This document shows positions 1 to 41,073 of a stretch of DNA of 41,073 bases, in pieces. This DNA is from a virus (lineage: Duplodnaviria; Heunggongvirae; Uroviricota; Caudoviricetes), in IMG/VR virus record IMGVR_UViG_2537561979_000009, positions 1 through 41,073 of that record. The stretch is one strand, 5' to 3'. A model generated the notes under the pieces. The model had not been told where the DNA came from. It saw only the letters and a list, made by a program, of their open reading frames with translations, and ran no database searches. Numbering within the stretch: the stretch's first letter is position 1; the number at the start of each line of letters is the position of its first letter. Made by a program: the position numbers and the translations under genes.

Positions 1-588
1 CGTTCCACCTGTTTCACCTTTTGGTCCCTGTGGACCTGCCGGACCGCGTTCACCTGTTTCACCTTTTGGTCCCTGTGGACCTGCCGGGCCGCGTGCTCCT
101 GTTTCACCTTTTGGCCCCTGTGGCCCGGTAATGCCTCTTTCACCACGAGCGCCGGTATCCCCTTTCTCTCCTCGTGGTCCCCGGGCAGATGCTGCTCGTT
201 TCCGGGCTTCCTCCGCCTCAGATGCCGCGGACTCTGCTCTGTGCAGTATGGACTGCACCACAGCCTCCAGCTCTGACAACGCCTTCGGATAATAAGGAGC
301 ATCTTCCATCTCCATCAGAAATTTATTCAGTGTTCCCGGTGACGAATCCTCCCTGACCACGATATCTCCCACATACGAAGGACGGTAACCTTCTGTATTG
401 AGTGTCACCCTGTATATTCCTGGCTCCACATCCATACTGTAACTCCCCGTCTCTTCCGGCATGCCATAAGCCACTGTCGTGGCGATGACTGTCTCGCTGG
501 TTCTCTTCGCTTTCAGCTCAATAATGCATCCCGGTACCGGTTTTCCGGTTCCGTCCCTCAGCACGCCTGAAATTTTTACAGCCGCCAT
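1..588 (-). CDS. stf: Side tail fiber protein, N-terminal 196 codons only (ORF continues beyond position 1); collagen-like Gly-X-Y repeats
   Basis: Manual minus-strand translation from ATG at 586-588 gives [18 protein letters not shown]..., resembling the lambda Stf N-terminus, then [16 protein letters not shown] repeats; GGAG Shine-Dalgarno upstream; open to base 1. Confidence 0.75.
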
Positions 589-22917: not shown

Positions 22918-23045
22918 GGATATTTATCAGGATTTATCGGTTCCGAATCCCTGGATATGTTAAATCTTCAGCCCGCCAGCGGTAGGACACTGGCGTTTTT
23001 CCTGATGGCTGAAATATATCTGACAATTTCAGTAGAGGATTAACC

Positions 23046-23360
23046 ATGCATAACGATCAACATAATTATGATTTATGCCTGCAAGCCATAAATGAGCGGG
23101 TAAAATCAGAGTGCCTCTTACTCCTCCCACAAGAACACGATGCAGTAAAATCCATTCAGGCTGAGCCGTATGGACATCTCACACCTGTGACTCTCGGCAT
23201 TATCGCCAGAGCATTAACACAGCCCATGCTTATGCGTATTAAGACCAATATAAATAACTGGTTGAATGAAGAATTAAGCTACCTTGATTGTGAGTGGGAC
23301 AATCATTACGCAAAAACACAAAAAGAACGCATCTTCAGTCGATTATCCAGCAACAGATAA
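23046..23360 (+). CDS. Hypothetical protein, 104 aa, antisense to the lysis operon
   Basis: GAGGAT Shine-Dalgarno 8 nt before ATG; convergent with the 268-aa ORF, ends 10 nt apart; not recognised. Confidence 0.55.
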   Translation: MHNDQHNYDLCLQAINERVKSECLLLLPQEHDAVKSIQAEPYGHLTPVTLGIIARALTQPMLMRIKTNINNWLNEELSYLDCEWDNHYAKTQKERIFSRLSSNR

Positions 23361-25200: not shown

Positions 25201-26307
25201 ATGAAAAATTTAACAGTGGCACTTTCTGCTGTAGCAGCATCAGTATTTCTGGCAACGTCTTCAAATGCAGCAGAAATATACAATAAAGATGCAAACAAAG
25301 TGGATTTATACGGTAAAGCAGTTGGTTTACATTATTTTTCTTCTGATAAGGACCAAAACGGAGATCAGACTTACGCACGCCTTGGATTCAGAGGTGAAAC
25401 CCAAATAAATAATTATATTACTGGTTTTGGTCAGTGGGAATATAATTTCCAGGGGAACAACCCTGAAGGGGATGGAGCTCAAACTGGAAACAAGACTCGC
25501 CTGGCATACGCTGGTCTGAAGCTTGCAGATGCTGGCTCTCTTGATTATGGTCGTAACTACGGCGTGGTGTACGACGCATTAAGCTACACTGACGTCTTCC
25601 CGGAGTTTGGACCTACCGCAGCGCAAGACGATAACTTCTTCGTTGGTCGTGTAGGCGGTGTTGCCACATACCGCAACACTGACTTTTTTGGACTGGTCGA
25701 TGGGCTTAGCTTTGCAATTCAGTATCTGGGAAAAAATGAACGCAAGGATAAACCAGATACTTCAAACGGAGAGGGTGTAGGTGGCTCTGTCAGCTATGAA
25801 TATGAAGGATTTGGTTTTGTCGCAGCATACGGCGCTGCTGATCGTACTAAAAATCAGAAAAAGGCTGAGCTTGGTAAAGGGAAAAAAGCTGAACAGTGGG
25901 CCACCGGGGTAAAATATGACGCAAATAATCTGTACCTGGCTGCCAGTTATGGTGAAACAAATAATACCCGTGCAATATCGTATGGTGATAATATTTCAGG
26001 AGTGGCGAATAAAACCGAAGATTTCACTGTTGTGGCACAATACCAGTTCGACTTTGGATTACGCCCGTCTCTTGCTTATACCCACTCTAAAGCAAAAAAC
26101 CTTTCATCCAGTACTGATATTAGTAAAAAACATGATGACGGATATATTGAAAAATTCGTTGAAGTCGGGGCTTCTTATTACTTCAACAAAAATATGTCTA
26201 CATACATAGATTACAAAATCAATATGCTCGATAAAAATAAATTCACTGAAAGAACAGGAGTATCAACCGACGATATTGTCGCTGTTGGTCTGGTTTATCA
26301 GTTCTGA
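25201..26307 (+). CDS. Outer membrane porin, OmpC/OmpF/PhoE family (prophage Lc/NmpC-like lysogenic conversion porin)
   Basis: 368 aa, signal peptide, ends in the beta-barrel motif ...VGLVYQF; AT-rich upstream region. Confidence 0.85.
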
Positions 26308-26451
26308 TTTGTTCTGTAAGAATATGCCGGGGGAGTGAGAACTTTTCTGGCATATAAAGTGGTGCCCTCATGCCACTGCAAAACGTTGGACAGTACTTAA
26401 CTTTTCCAACGAACTTTCTGTTATTTATTAACCTTTTTGGTTTTTATGCTT

Positions 26452-26478
26452 GGGCGCTTTGCGCCCATTTTTTATTTT
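26452..26478 (+). terminator. Rho-independent terminator (GGGCGC-TTT-GCGCCC then ATTTTTTATTTT)
   Basis: Perfect 6-bp GC stem and T-run on the plus strand, about 145 nt after the porin stop and just outside the Q 3' end. Confidence 0.7.
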
Positions 26479-26485
26479 GTACGCC

Positions 26486-26923
26486 TTATATCCCTGCCCT
26501 GGAGGACGCAGTTTTACGACGTATCGAATAATTTGTGCTCACATATCGATCCATCTCAAGGCGAACATCCAGCATCATCAACATGCCATCGATAACTCCT
26601 TCCGCTTTCTGCAGGCGCTTACCAACGCAAGTATCCGAACATCCATGTTTCCTTGCTAACTTCATGAACGTAATCCCATATACGTAGTAATCAACCAGCA
26701 TGTCATGCATATCGGCGTTGTTCTTTTTCAGGCGAGCCATACAACCACATATAATCATCGCGTCATCATCGGAACACTGCGATCGCGATTTTACTTTTGA
26801 CGGTATCAGCCCCTTAAATCCGGCGGCAATGCCTGACCATTCCACGTCTTCATGATTATTTGCGACCCATGCCCCCCAACGTTCAAGAACCATTTGAATA
26901 TCACGCATCAACTTTCTCCACAA
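26486..26923 (-). CDS. Q: Late gene antiterminator Q (QuuD/phage 21-type family)
   Basis: Cys-rich ~140-aa protein ([14 protein letters not shown]... [11 protein letters not shown]) between the nin-like region and lysis genes; alternative starts at Met6 and Met11. Confidence 0.65.
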
Positions 26924-26925
26924 AA

Positions 26926-27921
26926 TCAGGCCAGCACACCAGTTGCCAGCGCACGATCGATAAAACGAAATATCAGCTCCAGCTGGGAGCCATACTTCAC
27001 TTCAAATGCCACGGTATCCGCATGCAGCTCGTCGTGATGCTTTCTGCACAAAGGCAACACAAAGAGATCATGCGCTTTTTTACCCATTCCCCCCTGACCG
27101 TGGCCTATCAGATGGTGGGGATCATCAGCAGGCTTTCCACAACATGCACACGGCTGCGTCTTAACCCAGCGCGTGTACTTTTCATTAACCCAGCGGCGAC
27201 GTTTTGGGCGTAACATAAAAGACTCCGGCGACTCCGGATCCACTTTCAGCGCCAGCACCTTTTTCGCTTTATCCTGGATGATGCTGGTGGCAGGAACCGA
27301 AGGCACAAGGTCACTTTCCCGGGTGACAGATGGCACAACAGGCTTCGGTAATCTCAGTGCCTTACGGGCTGCACTTTCCGGTAAGGCATCCGCCAGATCA
27401 TTACGAACCAGCCACCAGCACAGTTCCGGCATTGTCACAACGTGACTGTCATCAAAACCGAGATCCCGACGCACGACAGACAACACCCAGCGGGCACAGT
27501 TATCCGTTGCCATTGATTCCAGCCGTTCCGTGAACTGATCGCGCAGCTGGTTATCGCAGTGCCAGCACAGACGGATTGCGCCCGGCGCGTGTCGCATTGT
27601 TGTCATGTTCTCGCTGTGCCAGTCGGAATGAGGCCACTGGCAGCCTTTTTCACGAAGTAACCAGCTTTCAAGACATTCCACGCCACCAGCACGACGGATC
27701 ACTGCCTCATTGCGGAACACGGCCCGAACGGCAGGATCATCCGCCAGCGGTTGTGATGCCGCCGGAACGGCACCACTGGCGAAAGATGAATAACGTTCCG
27801 GCTCAGGCTCCAGCAGGACACGCCCCTGCATAAACAGGGGCATCAGCTCTGAACCTGGCCTGAACAATACGATCCCCATACGCGGGGCAATTTCAGGGGT
27901 CAGTAGTGCTCTCACGGTCAC
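26926..27921 (-). CDS. DUF968-like prophage protein (YdfU-like), 331 aa
   Basis: C-terminal [21 protein letters not shown] ... [10 protein letters not shown] Cys/His cluster; position immediately upstream of Q. Confidence 0.45.
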
Positions 27922-27922
27922 C

Positions 27923-28750
27923 TCAATGAACGGTATCGAGCAGCTTTAACAGCTCAGGGAATCGGGATTCGAAGAAATGCGGCTGCGTCTCGCGCGGATT
28001 TGCGGGACTGGTGATGTTCTTGCCGAACATGCAACCTTTCGCTGTCAGCGACCAGAATTTTTTGATGTTGTTAATCGCGGTACGGCTGTATCGTTCGCGT
28101 TGTTCAACGATCCCCAGCTTCGCCATCTGGTGATATGCCTGATTAGCCGTAAGGCGGATACCATACTGTTTCAGCAGTGCACTCAGCGACAGCGTAGGGC
28201 GGCTTGAACCATCTGGCGCATCAGCAGGTGCATCAATGGCATAGATCGGCATAAGTTCAGGAAGACCAGCTACCTTTGATAATTTCTGGTATGCACCAAG
28301 TTTCGAGGAGTTTGACAGATTTAGAGTCTTTGCTGCTGATTCAAGCAGAATGACCCCGGATTTAATTTTGTCGGATGTGGTTTCTTCTGGTGATGAATTA
28401 TGAAGCGCATCAAAAGTACGTATCACTTTTAAGCTGAATGCCGGGCTGATCCACATTGCATATGCATAGACCAGCTCTTTACAGACATACGTCCCACCAT
28501 TGCGCCCCTGAATGGTGATGACAGGAATACTACGGGAATCTCCCGTAGTTTCTTCTTCCAATAATTCCACAAGAGCCTTCGTTTCAGGACGACGCATAAA
28601 CTCGTGAACTTCCAGCGAACGGGAGGAGCGATTCTCACCAGCGGCAAGAAGAGCAGCTTTCTGAAGGTCGTTAAGACAGTAGTTAGATTCGAAGTACTGG
28701 CGCACAGAAACGCCATCAATTACAAGCAACTGATTCATTGGTTTCTCCAC
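27923..28750 (-). CDS. KilA-N domain-like protein (putative antirepressor/Roi-like), 275 aa
   Basis: N-terminal region resembles KilA-N DNA-binding domains; assignment tentative. Confidence 0.4.
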   Translation of the reverse strand: MEKPMNQLLVIDGVSVRQYFESNYCLNDLQKAALLAAGENRSSRSLEVHEFMRRPETKALVELLEEETTGDSRSIPVITIQGRNGGTYVCKELVYAYAMWISPAFSLKVIRTFDALHNSSPEETTSDKIKSGVILLESAAKTLNLSNSSKLGAYQKLSKVAGLPELMPIYAIDAPADAPDGSSRPTLSLSALLKQYGIRLTANQAYHQMAKLGIVEQRERYSRTAINNIKKFWSLTAKGCMFGKNITSPANPRETQPHFFESRFPELLKLLDTVH

Positions 28751-28900
28751 AAATTTTTATCCACGAGCGGGACTGCACTCCCTTTTCGTTGATGCAGGAT
28801 GAACTTACTGCGATTTTTAATAGTTATCAAGGATACACTGTTCATAAATACAGTATCTTTAACGAGGTAATACCCAAATTTAGGGTGTTGCTCAATTCCG

Positions 28901-29296
28901 TTACCGAGTTGCTAATTTGCAACTCGCTTTTTCGTACTTACTGATAGTGATCTCGACCTTCCCCTCCGGGATAACCGGTCCCCACTCCACCAGCATTCTT
29001 TTCACCTGACTGTCGTCTTCCCACACCCCCGCGTGGGTCAGGGCGTCAAACAGCGCCTTGTTATAGTTGTCCAGATCGCGGATCCGGTTATCCGGAGGAA
29101 ACAACACGATCTCCACTGAAGCAGGTGCCGACGTTGGTTTCGGCAGACGACGTAACTGCTCAACTATTGCTGCGCACGCCGCGCTCTGAAATTTTCGCCC
29201 CGCCGCGCTTATCAGGCTCTTACCAGCAAATGCCCCTTTGTTGGGGTGTCGCCAGTACGTGTTCACGCTGGGCGGGAAAGGCAGGATCAGCTTCAT
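28901..29296 (-). CDS. rusA: Holliday junction resolvase RusA
   Basis: 131 aa, ...PPSVNTYWRH...DLDNYNKALFDALTHAGVWEDDSQV..., RusA family pattern. Confidence 0.8.
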   Translation of the reverse strand: MKLILPFPPSVNTYWRHPNKGAFAGKSLISAAGRKFQSAACAAIVEQLRRLPKPTSAPASVEIVLFPPDNRIRDLDNYNKALFDALTHAGVWEDDSQVKRMLVEWGPVIPEGKVEITISKYEKASCKLATR

Positions 29297-29619
29297 ACTT
29301 TCAGGCCTCTCTCATGTAACCAGTGGGTTGCACGCAGCCTGGCGTTTTCCTCACCGGCAAGCAGTGAGCGGATAATCCCGACCGCCTCGCTGTCGTCGTC
29401 CTTCACCGCGGTATGAAGAGTGATACCCCGGGCCACGCCACGCTTTATCGTGATGACGCCTTTTTTCTCCAGTGCGCGAAGATGTTCCACCGCTGCATTC
29501 ACTGAACGGTATCCCAGTATGGTTGCCACCTCCTGATTGGTTGGCGGGAAGCCACGTTCTTTCTGGTAAGAAATCAGCATATCCAGCACCTGCTGCTGGC
29601 ATTGAGTTAACGTCGTCAT
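29293..29619 (-). CDS. LexA N-terminal DNA-binding-domain-like protein with no peptidase domain, 108 aa
   Basis: LTQCQQQVLDMLISYQKERGFPPTNQEVATILGYRSVNAAVEHLRALEKKGVI closely parallels the LexA winged helix; no S24 domain follows. Confidence 0.6.
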   Translation of the reverse strand: MTTLTQCQQQVLDMLISYQKERGFPPTNQEVATILGYRSVNAAVEHLRALEKKGVITIKRGVARGITLHTAVKDDDSEAVGIIRSLLAGEENARLRATHWLHERGLKV

Positions 29620-30269
29620 GCCGCCATCTCCCTGACCAGTTTTTCCGCCTGCTGGCGAACCTGCGCCAGAAACGCCTCACCACATGCCTCAAGTTCATCA
29701 CGCCCGATGTAGCTGATTGCCGGTCCCTTCCAGGTCTTGTCGAAAACAGCAATAGCACCAGCGAAGAAAGCGCCTGTCGGCACCTGCTTCTCGTCCTTCG
29801 GTATAAACCAGGCAGGCAGTTCAAAACCAATACGCCCGCGAATAAAAGCAATATGATCTGCATCTTCCGGCCACCACACTTCGCTGGTGGCCGCTTTGAT
29901 CAGGAAAACATAGCGCCCGCCCTTATCACGCATGGCACTGGCATGTTTCATGATGTAACGCATGCCGGTGATGTATTGCCCCTCATGCTGACTGGCGCGG
30001 CTGTATGGAGGATTACCAAAGGCAGCACCTTTAAGCTCCGCAAGGCGTTCTGACCAGTCACGCGCCAGCGCGTTGTCTTCTGCCGTGTAATACGCGGCAC
30101 ATTTGGCGTTATCACCGTCAGTGAACAGATCCAGAACAAACGGGCCAAACAGGGTGTTAATTCCCCAGAAAATGTTGTCCGGCGTGCGCCACTGATCACC
30201 CACTTCCTTCAGTTCATGGGCTGGTTTGTTCCGCAGTTCCACCAGCTCCTGGCAATATTTATTACTCAT
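29616..30269 (-). CDS. Phage DNA N6-adenine methyltransferase (Dam-like)
   Basis: GNPPYS catalytic motif; start taken at MSNKYCQ (30269), abutting the upstream gene stop, rather than the ORF start at 30302. Confidence 0.7.
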   Translation of the reverse strand: MSNKYCQELVELRNKPAHELKEVGDQWRTPDNIFWGINTLFGPFVLDLFTDGDNAKCAAYYTAEDNALARDWSERLAELKGAAFGNPPYSRASQHEGQYITGMRYIMKHASAMRDKGGRYVFLIKAATSEVWWPEDADHIAFIRGRIGFELPAWFIPKDEKQVPTGAFFAGAIAVFDKTWKGPAISYIGRDELEACGEAFLAQVRQQAEKLVREMAA

Positions 30270-30763
30270 TAAGCCCCCACGTAATTCCTTGACAGATACC
30301 ACTCATCACCCGATACAGCTCGCTTGCTGCTTTTCCGTAAGCACTGCTCACGACGCGCCAGAAAATTGTTTCGTTCTGGCTGGGAGTGGCTTTCTCGGAA
30401 TGCCGCCATCCACACCGTTGCAGCACGACGGTATAAACCCCTGGACTCCAGCTCTTCAGCCTGGCGGGTCAGGCACAAAATCACCCGGGGATCGTTAGTG
30501 CCGACATAGAAATTGCGCACAGGTTTGGTTTCACGAACTGGTTGTGGTTCCGGCTCCTGCGCTCTCTCAGTCAGGCGTGGGAAATGTCTGCGTGTATCTC
30601 CTTCACAACGGTGAGCCACACGCCCACTCTGACGTAACTTGCTTGCTGACTGCAGAACGCGCTGCCGTGAGTAACCTGCAAAAGCATCCGCAATGTCTCC
30701 GGAAGTACACCCCGGATGGGCTTCAATGAATTTCTGAACTTCATTCAAAAGACTCATGATCAC
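30269..30763 (-). CDS. Putative PerC-family transcriptional regulator, 164 aa
   Basis: Motif ...LESRGLYRRAATVWMAAF... is reminiscent of PerC/Pch proteins; start overlaps the O-like gene stop. Tentative. Confidence 0.35.
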   Translation of the reverse strand: MIMSLLNEVQKFIEAHPGCTSGDIADAFAGYSRQRVLQSASKLRQSGRVAHRCEGDTRRHFPRLTERAQEPEPQPVRETKPVRNFYVGTNDPRVILCLTRQAEELESRGLYRRAATVWMAAFRESHSQPERNNFLARREQCLRKSSKRAVSGDEWYLSRNYVGA

Positions 30764-31578
30764 CCCCTGAATCCTGCCGGGATCTGGCTGTAGTCCACGT
30801 TGTCGTAACTGGCTTTGAAGTACGGGTCCTCACGTCTGGCTGCAGATACCGCAGGAACTTCCCAGGGTTCTTCGAAATGACGATCCGGACCAAAGAACGT
30901 GACAGCCTGTTTCACAAATTGTGTGCCGCTGTTACCCATCGCAGATACCCAGCCCGCGTAGCGTTTCACACCTTCCAGCATGGTTTCGGGGTTTACCCCC
31001 TCATTCAAACGGGCTTTCCAGGCTTTGAAGGCTGCAGATTTTGAATTGCCACCAGCACGTTTGGGATATGCCAGCCATGCCTGCTCAAACTCCGGAGAGT
31101 ATTCCGGTCGGTTTGAACGAACTCGCACAGACTCATCAGCAGATGCACCAACAGCTATTGGTTCATTGACTGGTTCTTTGACTGGTTCAAAAGAGTGACT
31201 GGTTCTGGGTGAATCTCCTGCACTACCCCCTGGTGCAACTCCTGCACTACATGGTGAATTTGCTGCACCAGATAGTGAATTATTTGCACTACCCCCTAGT
31301 GAATCTCCTGCACCATCCAGATGAAGGAGATAGATATTACTTGAGTTACCTTTTTCACCTTTCCGGGTGACTTTTTTTACCAGCCCGGACTCACAAAGGG
31401 CCGCAATATGATTCATCACAGAACGTTTGCTAATCTCGCACTGGTCAGCAATATGCTGGTAGCTGGGCCAGCACTCACCCTGATCGCTGGCATTATCAGC
31501 CAGCTTGATCAGAACCAGTTTTCGCAATGGATTACCCACTCGAATTTTCATCGCTTTAACCATCAGCTCCATACTCAT
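30760..31578 (-). CDS. Replication initiation protein (lambda O analogue) with internal iterons
   Basis: N-terminal winged-helix region (LRKLVLIKLADNASDQGECWPSYQHIADQCEISKRSVMNHIAALCESGLV), Gly/Ser/Ala linker encoded by iteron DNA; early-right operon position. Confidence 0.6.
   Translation of the reverse strand: MSMELMVKAMKIRVGNPLRKLVLIKLADNASDQGECWPSYQHIADQCEISKRSVMNHIAALCESGLVKKVTRKGEKGNSSNIYLLHLDGAGDSLGGSANNSLSGAANSPCSAGVAPGGSAGDSPRTSHSFEPVKEPVNEPIAVGASADESVRVRSNRPEYSPEFEQAWLAYPKRAGGNSKSAAFKAWKARLNEGVNPETMLEGVKRYAGWVSAMGNSGTQFVKQAVTFFGPDRHFEEPWEVPAVSAARREDPYFKASYDNVDYSQIPAGFRG
31209..31313. repeat. Five phased iterons GTGAATnnnnTGCAC (one variant), candidate replication origin
   Basis: Copies begin near 31209, 31233, 31254, 31275 and 31299 (spacing 24/21/21/24 bp); additional TGACTGGTTC x3 at about 31166-31205. 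Confidence 0.65.
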
Positions 31579-31799
31579 GCTGCACCTCCGAGATGCTTCA
31601 TGTTTTTTCCGGAGCGAAAGGCTATAAGCGGCATACTGATGCGGTAATTACGGCCCAGCGGTTCACAAATCACCTTCTGACATTCACGGTCAACCAGGCT
31701 AACACGTAGAACATGCCCTGCAGGCGTGGTGTACCACTGACCCGGACGAGGACAACGGAAAGTCTGATTGGTAAAACGTTTGAAAATATTCCGGATCAT
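31575..31799 (-). CDS. Hypothetical small protein, 74 aa
   Basis: Start overlaps the Rha stop and its stop overlaps the O-like start. Confidence 0.4.
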   Translation of the reverse strand: MIRNIFKRFTNQTFRCPRPGQWYTTPAGHVLRVSLVDRECQKVICEPLGRNYRISMPLIAFRSGKNMKHLGGAA

Positions 31800-32959
31800 T
31801 TGCGCCCCCTTACCTCTGAAGGGTTCAGCGACAAATTTATGAGGCAGGCCAGTGCCGAAGCATCATTAATATAGTCATATAAGCTAACAGCCAGCGGAGA
31901 TTCGGCTTTTGCCAACATAGGATAAAGCTGCTGCAGCCAGACCTGATGAATTGATGAAATGTAGGAACAGAGAACGCTGGCGTTATGTGCAACGTCGCTC
32001 GGTACAGCGGGCTTTGAAAGCTGTTTCTCCATCTGGTTAAAGGCATTGATGTATGCCTCTTTGAACTGGGCAGCACGTTTCCCCGTGAAACCCATAGCAA
32101 GAAACGCAAAGCCGTCGCGGGTTATTTGATAGCAAGGAAGTTTGCGAGTACCGCCGTTGGGCTGGCGTACCAAAATTGATGTCTCCGCAAAATTGCGGGC
32201 ACAAAACTCTGGAGAACAATCCAAAATGCGGATCTTTTTCAGAACATCGTCATGACGTTTAGAGAAGAAGTCAGCAACAGCCAAAGAAGATGTAACAGCC
32301 TGACCATCAACGATGGCAATTTCAGGTTGAGAGAGGGTTGGGAGAGTAGTCATGGTGACAGCCCCGGTAGTCAGTTTTTTAGAAAACTCACCACATGGGA
32401 CGCCAATCACAGAGGTGGTGAGACGTACAGGGTTGGCGTTACCGGAGACTACCGAACCCGGCCCGACCGAAGTCGGCCCTGTACGCCCCACCATAATTTG
32501 GGCGTAGCAATGCTCATGACACGAAAAAACCGCATGAGCGCGGTTATGCTCAGTAATCAATTTCAGGACGCCAATCCCGGCACCCGTTTTATAAGGTGCC
32601 TGAACAGTGTAACGTCCCGGAATGGCAGAATCAATGTGCTGGTGGTCCTTCACACTCAACAAAATCACGCCTGAATTTCCACAAAGGACTAAAGCACTCA
32701 TGCGGGTAGTCTTTGCGAAAATAGATAACGCGCTGTGTTTCTGGTTCCCAACGAATAACATGAACATAAAGTCCTCTTCCGTCACGAAACCAGCGGTTAA
32801 GTTCCTGCACAACTCGCCCCCCACAGTCAGGTAAAGTTCTCTGTGGTTACTTACAGCCAGGTGATTTGGTAATCTGCATTCATGCCGTAACAACAGGTGT
32901 TCAGCCACGCGGACCACCAGCTGTTGCGACCAACGGTTATTTGCCGTTAAACTGTTCAT
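31796..32959 (-). CDS. Rha family phage regulatory protein; Rha domain in the C-terminal 185 aa, N-terminal 202 codons of uncertain reality
   Basis: MTTLPTLSQPEIAIVDGQAVTSSLAVADFFSKRHDDVLKKIRILDCSPEFCARNF...MGFTG matches the Phage_pRha pattern and begins at an internal Met near 32353; the ORF stays open to 32959. Confidence 0.6.
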   Translation of the reverse strand: MNSLTANNRWSQQLVVRVAEHLLLRHECRLPNHLAVSNHRELYLTVGGELCRNLTAGFVTEEDFMFMLFVGNQKHSALSIFAKTTRMSALVLCGNSGVILLSVKDHQHIDSAIPGRYTVQAPYKTGAGIGVLKLITEHNRAHAVFSCHEHCYAQIMVGRTGPTSVGPGSVVSGNANPVRLTTSVIGVPCGEFSKKLTTGAVTMTTLPTLSQPEIAIVDGQAVTSSLAVADFFSKRHDDVLKKIRILDCSPEFCARNFAETSILVRQPNGGTRKLPCYQITRDGFAFLAMGFTGKRAAQFKEAYINAFNQMEKQLSKPAVPSDVAHNASVLCSYISSIHQVWLQQLYPMLAKAESPLAVSLYDYINDASALACLINLSLNPSEVRGRK

Positions 32960-33857: not shown

Positions 33858-34550
33858 ATGAACATAGGAAACCGAGTCAGACAACTTCGCCAGGCGAAGA
33901 ACATGAAAATCGCCGATCTCGCTGAAGCAATAGGAGTGGATGCGGCGAATATCTCACGCCTGGAAACAGGTAAGCAGAAACAATTCACTGAACAAGCCCT
34001 GAGTAATATTGCCAGGAGCTTAGGTGTTGATATTGCTGATCTCTTTACCTCAGACTTCAAAAGTAATACTGTATGTAAAAACAGTATTAGTGAGGATGTT
34101 GCGCAGGTGAAGGATGTATTCCGTATTGAAATGCTGGATGTCAGTGCCAGTGCGGGAAATGGCCTTATCCAGGGCGGTGATGTCATTGATGTGATTCATG
34201 CCATTGAATACAGAACTGATAATGCTGTATCGATGTTTGGCGGACGGCCAGCCAATCACATTAAAGTTATCAACGTTCGTGGGGACAGTATGTGTCCAAC
34301 CATTGAACCAGGAGATCTCATCTTCGTTGATGTCAGTATCAATCAGTTTGATGGAGATGGTATCTATGTATTTGGTTTTGATGATAAAATTTATGTCAAA
34401 CGACTGCAAATGATACCTGACAAACTACTGGTGATTTCTGATAACCAGATTTACCGTGAATGGGGAATTACCAGCGAAAATGAACACCGGTTTATGGTCT
34501 TTGGAAAGGTCTTAATCAGCCAGTCACAAACCCTTAAGCGACACAATTAA
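33858..34550 (+). CDS. cI: CI repressor: N-terminal HTH plus C-terminal S24 (LexA-like) autoproteolytic domain
   Basis: 230 aa; HTH (MKIADLAEAIGVDAANISRLETGKQ), C-terminal GDSM serine and KR lysine motifs. Confidence 0.85.
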   Translation: MNIGNRVRQLRQAKNMKIADLAEAIGVDAANISRLETGKQKQFTEQALSNIARSLGVDIADLFTSDFKSNTVCKNSISEDVAQVKDVFRIEMLDVSASAGNGLIQGGDVIDVIHAIEYRTDNAVSMFGGRPANHIKVINVRGDSMCPTIEPGDLIFVDVSINQFDGDGIYVFGFDDKIYVKRLQMIPDKLLVISDNQIYREWGITSENEHRFMVFGKVLISQSQTLKRHN

Positions 34551-39837: not shown

Positions 39838-41073
39838 CTACGCAAACTGTCCGTTGGAGATTAAGTCAGTACAAGTAACGATCGATTCAACCCTCTCCCA
39901 CCATGCCCAGTAAGCTTTACGCTGTTCTTCTAGATAATCGCTCTTATCATAAACTTGCCATACACCTGGCAGTTTATGACCGAGCATTATTTCAGCAATA
40001 TGAGGAGCAGTAAGATCAGAAAAGTTTGTTCGTGCTGTTCGTCTCAAATCATGAAGAGACCAATGAGGAAATTGATACCCCAAACGTCGCCATGCGAACT
40101 GCATTAAATTGTAAGGCAGCGACTGCAATGATGTCCGACCAACTGGCTCCCTGCTTCCTTCCTTAGTAAAAAGCATATCGGAACCGTTGTTCATAGAGAT
40201 AACGTATTTTATAAGCTCTTCAACCGGTTCAATAATGGGCCGCTTTAGCGGTTCGCCTGTTATGTCCCCAGTCTTATGTCGTTCTGGTGGTACAGTCCAT
40301 ACCTTATTTATGAAATCAAAATCATCCACCCTAGCAGTAATTAGCTCTGAACTACGGCAACCAAAATGCAGCAATAGTTTAATGAAGGCTCGGTATTTAG
40401 GAACCATTCGAGAACCATCGATCGCAGCATAAAGGATGTTAATTTCATCATGTGTCAGAAACCGTTTTTTCTGACCTTTACGGATATCCATATCTTTACC
40501 CGTGATATCCGACAGTGGGCGAGTTTCAATGAGCTTTCTCTTATACGCCCAGACATGGGCCTGCTTTGCGTTAATTAGCAATCGGTCTACTATTGCTGGA
40601 GTCTTGGTGCTAAGAGGCTCCAGGACTTCTAACCAATCATGCAATGTAGCTGCATCGTGAGGGATATTCCCGATTTTAGAGAACAGGTGCAGCTCAAACG
40701 AGCGGAGTATCTGTTCAGAACCTTTTTTATTTTTTACACAATATGCTTCATACCAGGCACGGATCACAGACTCTACCGTCATGGCTTCAGTAGCTTTTCG
40801 TTTTTCAGCCTGCTTGACTAATCGTGGATTGCGGTTTGACTCGAGTTCACCACGGAGACGGATAACTTCTTCTCTGGCCTCTTTTAATCCAGTTGCCGGG
40901 TAAGTTCCGATATCAAGGCGCTCACCTTTCCCTGCCCATTGATAACGATATTGGAACACTACGCGACCTTTCGGTGATACTCTGACAGACAGACCATCAC
41001 GATCGGATTTAACCAAAACCTTATCACGTTCCTTTCCAACGACTGAACGCAACCACGCATCAGACAGCGCCAT
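39838..41073 (-). CDS. int: Tyrosine integrase, P4-type with DUF4102-like N-terminus
   Basis: 411 aa; N-terminal ...LSVRVSPKGRVVFQYRYQWAGK arm-binding-like region and C-terminal R...HDLRRT...LGH...Y catalytic motifs; ATG occupies the last three bases of the window. Confidence 0.85.
   Translation of the reverse strand: MALSDAWLRSVVGKERDKVLVKSDRDGLSVRVSPKGRVVFQYRYQWAGKGERLDIGTYPATGLKEAREEVIRLRGELESNRNPRLVKQAEKRKATEAMTVESVIRAWYEAYCVKNKKGSEQILRSFELHLFSKIGNIPHDAATLHDWLEVLEPLSTKTPAIVDRLLINAKQAHVWAYKRKLIETRPLSDITGKDMDIRKGQKKRFLTHDEINILYAAIDGSRMVPKYRAFIKLLLHFGCRSSELITARVDDFDFINKVWTVPPERHKTGDITGEPLKRPIIEPVEELIKYVISMNNGSDMLFTKEGSREPVGRTSLQSLPYNLMQFAWRRLGYQFPHWSLHDLRRTARTNFSDLTAPHIAEIMLGHKLPGVWQVYDKSDYLEEQRKAYWAWWERVESIVTCTDLISNGQFA

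Follow-up and report, generated by a model that had tools for sequence, protein, structure and literature searches.

The only truncated LexA homologue of a phage known to have been characterised, and the closest parallel to the gene studied here, is gp6 of the Bacillus thuringiensis tectivirus GIL01, a protein of 66 amino acids that binds GaCACAnnTGTGaC over the -35 of the late promoter P3 and activates it; the site is a non-SOS palindrome located at -43.5 of that late promoter and is unlike the LexA box of the host (PMC6182141). For E. coli LexA, the residues given as contacting DNA are S39, N41, A42, E44 and E45 (PMC13416735, citing Knegtel et al. 1995). Here we analysed a LexA-like gene in a 41,073-nucleotide stretch of Caudoviricetes DNA (IMG/VR record IMGVR_UViG_2537561979_000009, positions 1 to 41,073; the whole stretch is called the window below). 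This stretch is an entire lambdoid prophage, which runs in reverse with the tail genes on the left.

The gene has been seen before. A survey of Shiga toxin (Stx) phages contains a pham with pfam01726 in 15 Stx phages, which it leaves uncommented (PMC8136144), and we found no functional study of the LexA-like gene in the literature. Our best reading, to which we give a probability of roughly 0.4, is that the gene product would act as a delayed-early, RecA-insensitive LexA surrogate that binds CTGT-type operators.

A LexA-type DNA-binding domain without the autoprotease

The original prediction, made from the letters of the DNA, held that the 108-amino-acid protein parallels the N-terminal winged helix of LexA, recognition helix included, and that it has no S24 peptidase domain; a pairwise alignment with LexA and a structure prediction were named as checks. 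Both statements stand. The Pfam family PF01726 (LexA_DNA_bind) matches residues 1-65 over the full model (1-65 of 65) with E=5.5e-19 and 68.2 bits, against a cutoff of 23.7. A phmmer search of the PDB aligned residues 2-69 without gaps to residues 2-69 of the E. coli LexA DNA-binding domain (1lea, E=1.4e-15), a significant similarity with 44% identity to E. coli LexA. An AlphaFold2 (AF2) model built from 24 family members, with a predicted local distance difference test (pLDDT) score of 81, has the helix-helix-helix-strand-strand order of a winged helix (helices 6-22, 28-35 and 40-52, strands 56-58 and 66-68), and its best PDB matches are the chains of LexA-DNA complexes (3jso_B, root-mean-square deviation 1.1 A over 68 columns, 50% identity). 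The recognition helix reads SVNAAVEHLRAL in the LexA-like protein and SPNAAEEHLKAL in LexA.

The second half of LexA is missing. The peptidase family PF00717 (Peptidase_S24) gave no match to the protein, which ends at residue 108, even at E<=1, and the NCBIfam lexA equivalog TIGR00498 aligns over model positions 1-91 of 203 only, with 70.0 bits and thus below its cutoff of 110.95. The PHROG_362 profile ('transcriptional repressor', about 106 amino acids) aligns from end to end (E=5.5e-59, protein 1-108, profile 1-106 of 106). It is almost certain that the protein consists of a LexA-type DNA-binding domain plus a hairpin, without an S24 domain. Since the S24 autoprotease domain is absent, RecA-stimulated self-cleavage cannot inactivate the LexA-like protein.

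The C-terminal helical hairpin had been overlooked in the original prediction, as had the wide and already annotated occurrence of the gene. In the AF2 model the hairpin is formed by helices 74-87 and 93-103 (pLDDT about 88), a region that is unmatched by any LexA structure in the PDB and that is conserved in full-length relatives down to about 40% identity. We regard it as a putative dimerisation element. The HMMER alignment with LexA runs on through the linker and places 'LLAGEE' opposite the LexA cleavage site 'VAAGEP', with A88-G89 opposite A84-G85, and because of this match the family looks like a lexA 5' end that was truncated just past the cleavage site and acquired a new tail. The Ala-Gly pair lies in a predicted helix of a protein with no catalytic domain, and we do not think that it is used, because the Gly is not conserved (it is N in P0038 and P0043 and varies among the aligned profile matches).

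The ratio of non-synonymous to synonymous polymorphism (pN/pS) was calculated from 98 full-length copies in the fetched loci, representing 45 distinct alleles. The whole gene has a value of 0.08, the winged helix one of 0.03 and the tail one of 0.18; the protein is thus under strong purifying selection, and its tail is selected too. The allele of the window has Ile34 in helix 2 (codon 34, 29518-29520), where 97 of the 98 other full-length copies have Met.

DNA-contact residues

The LexA-like protein retains S39, N41, A42 and E45 together with the wing residue R64, and has V in place of E44. We searched 1.84 billion representative proteins with a profile and aligned the hairpin-bearing matches: among these relatives S39 never varies, N41 hardly ever does, and most have A42 and E45. 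The same four residues are present in gp43 of mEp390, which is 47% identical. Judged from its sequence, the dominant E. coli clade looks SOS-like.

Seven of the representative proteins (P0129, P0132, P0134, P0135 and P0142-P0144) gave two separate profile matches each. These may carry tandem LexA-type DNA-binding domains and form a single-chain pseudo-dimer.

Position in the rightward early operon

The genes of the rightward early operon lie on the minus strand of the window (Table 1), and the LexA-like gene sits among them between the O-like replication gene and Q, which is the nin-equivalent position that the original prediction had assigned to it. The string O-PerC-Dam-LexA-like-RusA is tightly packed, and its order is the same in SfV, mEp460 and PhiR49_1. 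The O/PerC junction reads TGAtcATG and the PerC/Dam junction TAATG, the likely methyltransferase start being the ATG at 30269, with a 1-nt overlap with the PerC TAA. On either side of the LexA-like gene an ATGA overlap bears out the translational coupling to the methyltransferase and rusA that had been proposed. A gap of 150 bp separates rusA from the KilA-N gene.

A consensus scan of the minus strand between 28900 and 33700 found no sigma-70-like promoter. As no promoter-like site was found in the string, the LexA-like gene is probably expressed from the rightward early operon in the pR transcript, as a delayed-early product, both after infection and after induction. The location in the early-right operon, upstream of a DUF968 (YdfU-type) gene and Q, is common to the window, SfV, mEp460, PhiR49_1, mEp390 and a Klebsiella phage, and the homologue in an Edwardsiella phage occupies a comparable position between unannotated flanking genes. 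A PADLOC scan for defence systems returned nothing relevant.

Table 1. Features of the window. Scores from the position weight matrix (PWM) for SOS boxes, described in the next section, are approximate; HTH, helix-turn-helix; ORF, open reading frame; a dot marks a feature given without a strand.
Feature	Coordinates	Strand	Evidence or remarks
LexA-like gene	29293..29619	-	ATG start, 108 aa; PF01726, phrog_362, pN/pS 0.08
Winged helix-turn-helix, codons 1-70, homologous to LexA residues 1-70	29410..29619	-	alignment, AF2, pN/pS 0.03
Recognition helix SVNAAVEHLRALEK (LexA: SPNAAEEHLKALAR), codons 39-52	29464..29505	-	translation, alignments
C-terminal helical hairpin, codons 74-103, where the S24 domain would stand	29311..29400	-	AF2, conservation
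ATGA overlap, methyltransferase stop and LexA-like gene start	29616..29619	-	sequence, ORF coordinates
ATGA overlap, LexA-like gene stop (TGA) and rusA ATG	29293..29296	-	sequence, ORF coordinates
Phage Dam-like N6-adenine DNA methyltransferase, upstream of LexA-like gene	29616..30269	-	PF05869 E=7e-46; annotation in related phages
RusA Holliday-junction resolvase, downstream of LexA-like gene	28901..29296	-	PF05866 E=6.4e-15; phrog_34
PerC/YfdN-like gene	30269..30757	-	PF06069; first gene after O-like replication gene
O-like replication gene	30760..31578	-	
SOS box CACTGTTCATAAATACAGTA between rusA and KilA-N gene	28836..28855	.	PWM 21.3, within range of genuine E. coli boxes
KilA-N domain gene, 275 aa	27923..28750	-	
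DUF968/HNH (YdfU-type) gene	26926..27921		
Q antiterminator gene	26486..26923		
cI repressor gene	33858..34550	+	HTH domain and Peptidase_S24 domain
Near-consensus SOS box TACTGTATGTAAAAACAGTA inside cI ORF	34067..34086	.	PWM 25.8
Integrase gene	39838..41073		

Further along the early operon, an ORF of 387 amino acids (31796..32959, minus strand) combines an Ash domain (residues 117-212) with a Rha domain (residues 223-312), and a terminator-like hairpin lies within it on the coding strand (32545-32528). Its counterpart is mEp460 gp41, annotated as a putative antirepressor.

SOS boxes in the window and in related loci

SOS boxes were scored with a weight matrix made from 20 E. coli boxes, which gives approximate scores. 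In the approximately 2-kb cassette that always accompanies the gene, no SOS-like box was found at a PWM threshold of 10, and a palindrome scan of 28700-31700 gave no notable short inverted repeat. When the whole window was scanned for CTGT-Nx-ACAG at spacings of 0 to 16, no such site fell inside the linked cassette, and only the canonical N8 spacing was enriched in the window (4 observed, 0.56 expected). Nor did the cassette yield a repeated conserved motif or a candidate for an operator of the gp6 type. An operator of the protein's own is therefore not evident in the linked DNA, which fits targets elsewhere.

Outside the cassette the window has two strong boxes. The one in front of the KilA-N gene is present in only 5 of 80 related loci, and PhiR49_1 also has it; SfV and mEp460 carry another KilA-N allele, which begins 20 bp after rusA and is without the box. 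This suggests that the boxed KilA-N gene may be a LexA-controlled, antirepressor-like module that was inserted after rusA. The other box falls within the S24-type cI gene, at about codons 70-76, which encode the linker. In SfII the corresponding site is TACTGTATATAAAAACAGTA, nearer the consensus though the flanking codons diverge, and the cI-internal box is also found in the cI of mEp460 and in about 22 of the 80 IMG/VR loci. It could be an internal or antisense SOS-controlled promoter (TTTACC-17-TACTGT, plus strand) or a block to transcription by LexA. Both boxes of the window are candidate targets of the LexA-like protein, the default ligand being host LexA.

A further SOS box, absent from the window, is TACTGTAAAAATAAACAGTG, which overlies codons 3-9 of a late-region DNA methyltransferase gene, SfV orf48 (SfV 34170-34189, mEp460 41021-41040). 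The putative pR' promoter and tR' terminator are about 500 bp upstream of this site. Of the phage records, 29 have the box, among them all fifteen Stx2c phages, and so do more than 120 contigs of IMG/VR. Through it LexA may control the methylase or the onset of the late operon. Where SfV and mEp460 have this methyltransferase, just downstream of Q, the window has an OmpC/OmpD-type porin gene of 368 amino acids inserted in opposite orientation (25201..26307, plus strand; Porin_1 E=2.9e-125), with its own terminator at 26451-26467.

The 80 IMG/VR loci with the gene hold 59 strong SOS boxes in 1.25 Mb, against 0 in shuffles, and the recurrent types are the three just described: inside cI, upstream of the KilA-N gene, and over codons 3-9 of the late-region methyltransferase. 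Q-anchored loci have 0.49 boxes per 10 kb where the gene is present and 0.15 where it is absent, a difference of about 3-fold that we treat as weak evidence because the loci are related to each other. The boxed cI allele is accompanied by the LexA-like gene in 13 of 13 phage records, and the boxed methyltransferase in 27 of 29; the two exceptions are Kp4866-6, in which there is a distant homologue, and phiNP, which is missing from the tblastn hits. We take the SOS boxes near the gene to be primarily sites for host LexA.

Distribution and previous annotation

The gene is shared at 95-99% identity by SfV (orf42), mEp460 (gp46), SfII, SfIV, the cdtI phage, 1720a-02 and others, and at the same level by fifteen Stx2c phages, Stx2a_WGPS2 and Stx2a_1447. 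In phage genomes it is labelled "LexA DNA binding domain protein", "LexA-like protein" or "transcriptional repressor". RefSeq has it, under the name "LexA family transcriptional regulator", in 2233 of 5426 complete E. coli genomes (41%), with up to four copies, and a collection of 5.8 billion proteins contains clusters of 2527, 782 and 374 members. The feature is thus already annotated and very common in E. coli prophages. The Gifsy-1 region STM14_3218-3220 was considered as a possible site of a LexA-like or Dam gene pair, but according to the paper it contains none (PMC9879122).

Discussion

The fold, the contact residues, the absence of the protease, the selection and the operon position were all observed; the remaining parts of the model, namely dimerisation, operator, timing and effect, we infer as follows. 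The hairpin would replace the C-terminal domain of LexA as the dimerisation element, and the dimer would bind CTGT-type (SOS-box-like) operators through the recognition helix with S39, N41, A42 and E45. DNA damage would not remove such a protein, and promoters under LexA control would be kept closed, or closed again, during lytic growth. Repression would in this way be maintained while host LexA is being cleaved, or at a time when replication and recombination of the phage would themselves trigger the SOS response. Candidate targets are host SOS genes, SOS-boxed genes of the same prophage and those of co-resident prophages. The original prediction had proposed that the protein could occupy SOS boxes without being cleavable, and this we find plausible.

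Some circumstantial support may be seen in the DinI homologues that phages of this group carry, which hint at a shared theme of SOS dampening. In mEp460 the DinI homologue gp21 (gene 22993..23241) stands behind two SOS boxes at 23255-23302, and in the Klebsiella phage ST846-OXA48phi9.1 a DinI gene (1..234) lies two genes upstream of the LexA-like homologue.

A more elaborate form of the surrogate, a 'second LexA', strikes us as rather unlikely. Here host LexA would close the prophage boxes in the lysogen, damage would open them, and the uncleavable phage copy would close them again a few minutes later; the boxes concerned have unusual positions, namely within cI, in the late-region methyltransferase (codons 3-9) and upstream of the KilA-N gene. 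The same protein would also shut the SOS regulon of the host and, in rival prophages, antirepressors under LexA control, giving a timed pulse together with the shutdown of competitors.

Several observations weigh against the surrogate. Residue 44 is never acidic in the hairpin-bearing relatives, whereas hairpin-less LexA-like sequences from the same search have E44, and the contact residues are altered in Citrobacter P0086 (N-T-I-A-G), in the Klebsiella phage (S-K-A-V-L-L) and in P0141 (N-T-V-F-I). Since recognition helices have diverged in hosts that share one SOS box, it can be argued that at least some family members are likely to read other sequences. The geometry of the dimer, which sets the spacing of the operator half-sites, is itself only deduced. 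As for the boxes, 36 of the 80 loci have no strong one, and in an exact-pattern scan of IMG/VR 7 of the 55 determinable contigs with the boxed methyltransferase had no homologue of the LexA-like gene, profile search included. Because these 7 contigs lack the gene and the loci are related by descent, the co-occurrence of box and gene, suggestive as it looks, is compatible with linkage, which is the simpler explanation. An obligate dependence of the boxed methyltransferase on the LexA-like gene, which we had considered, is ruled out by the same contigs.

The main rival explanation draws on several of these points. It holds that the protein is a phage-specific regulator, activator or repressor, which derives from LexA, no longer reads the SOS box and has an operator of its own. 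GIL01 gp6 is a precedent for this, both in using a site other than the host LexA box and in activating; the replacement of E44 in all hairpin-bearing relatives points the same way, the divergence of the helix in some branches suggests specificities that have diversified phage by phage, and the labels in PHROGs and RefSeq already speak of a transcriptional repressor or regulator. On the other hand, the linked cassette contains no conserved palindrome or repeated motif that could serve as the operator, and S39, N41, A42 and E45 are retained in the dominant E. coli clade and in the majority of distant relatives. Furthermore, the immunity region, Q and the late region vary among carriers of near-identical copies, such that a fixed target is hard to place. 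We regard this explanation as possible but somewhat doubtful.

It is improbable, in our judgement, that the protein acts mainly through protein contacts, with the hairpin binding RecA filaments, host LexA, Dam, RusA or RNA polymerase and the winged helix supplying a general affinity for DNA. A conserved hairpin to which no function has been assigned would suit such a role, and the tight coupling to Dam and RusA could mean that these are stoichiometric partners. However, mEp390 carries the gene without Dam, the homologue of the Edwardsiella phage is without the hairpin, and the strongest constraint falls on the DNA-binding domain (pN/pS 0.03).

We think it very unlikely that the protein competes with host LexA at SOS boxes without repressing, and thereby opens, for example, the boxed late methyltransferase or the KilA-N gene in undamaged infected cells. 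The protein is small, and there are boxes at the start of, or within, phage genes whose expression is needed during infection of cells with intact LexA, but a site-specific binder at boxes that overlap promoters would normally repress, and nothing supports the idea directly. Moreover, binding by isolated N-terminal domains of LexA is weaker than that of the LexA dimer, which they would fail to displace. A reading of the gene as the dead remainder of a captured lexA 5' end that hitchhikes with neighbouring genes is suggested by the alignment of 'LLAGEE' with the LexA cleavage site and is hardly credible given the pN/pS of 0.08 over 45 alleles, an ORF that is intact in 2223 E. coli genomes, and full-length relatives down to about 40% identity in which the hairpin is conserved.

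The LexA-like gene is among the commonest accessory genes of E. coli prophages and is found in Shiga-toxin and Shigella serotype-converting phages. If the surrogate reading is true, the SOS response of lysogens and infected cells would be partly under phage control, which could affect cross-induction of prophages, toxin release, mutagenesis and responses to antibiotics, and if its 'second LexA' form is true, a widespread and unrecognised layer of SOS control would bear on the induction of Shiga-toxin phages. Should the protein prove to be a phage-specific regulator, it would follow one earlier case in which a phage has put a LexA DNA-binding domain to a different use, and in Gram-negative bacteria it would be the first. 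Neither the surrogate nor the phage-specific outcome would overturn current ideas.

Comparison with known systems

The N-terminal domain of E. coli LexA (1LEA, 3JSO; PF01726) has the same fold as the phage protein (1.1 A), 44-50% identity and a nearly identical recognition helix, and the homology takes in the linker and reaches the 'AGE' at the cleavage site. The two differ in that the phage protein is without the S24 Ser/Lys autoprotease and dimerisation domain and has a hairpin of about 30 residues instead; E44 is replaced by V, P40 by V and R28 by N; the gene stands in a phage early operon and not under an SOS-box promoter, and its product scores below the lexA equivalog cutoff.

Two altered forms of LexA come close to it in different ways. 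Non-cleavable LexA Ind- mutants (such as S119A or G85D) combine LexA-type DNA binding with insensitivity to RecA and are thus a functional analogy for what we propose, but they retain the C-terminal dimerisation domain. In extent, the 1-84 cleavage fragment of LexA nearly coincides with the part of the phage protein that is homologous; this fragment binds weakly and is degraded by ClpXP via its new C-terminus, whereas the phage protein continues into the conserved hairpin. The SOS modulators PsiB, GIL01 gp7 and the DinI homologues share the proposed outcome, in which a mobile element dampens host SOS, but they act on RecA filaments or on the LexA protein and not on operators, and they have no sequence or fold in common with the LexA-like protein.

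GIL01 gp6 is likewise encoded by a phage and has a LexA DNA-binding domain but no catalytic one; its expression is early, and it shares about 44% identity with the LexA N-terminal domain of its own host. In contrast to the LexA-like protein, gp6 has no hairpin, and its helix SHKTAHRYL, in which K38 is essential, is unlike both that of its host LexA and that of the LexA-like protein, which retains the LexA-type contact residues. A BLASTP comparison of the LexA-like protein with gp6 (L287:4350-4547) found nothing to align at E<=100. The LexA-like protein is thereby excluded from the gp6 family, and since no similarity is detected, we consider the two proteins, as far as their sequences tell, to be analogues that arose independently. 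The entries PHROG_362 and 'LexA family transcriptional regulator' of RefSeq describe the same gene in the same place between Dam and RusA, with no difference of substance. Taken together, the gene is a Gram-negative representative of the phage-encoded truncated LexA homologues, set apart by its distinctive C-terminal hairpin.

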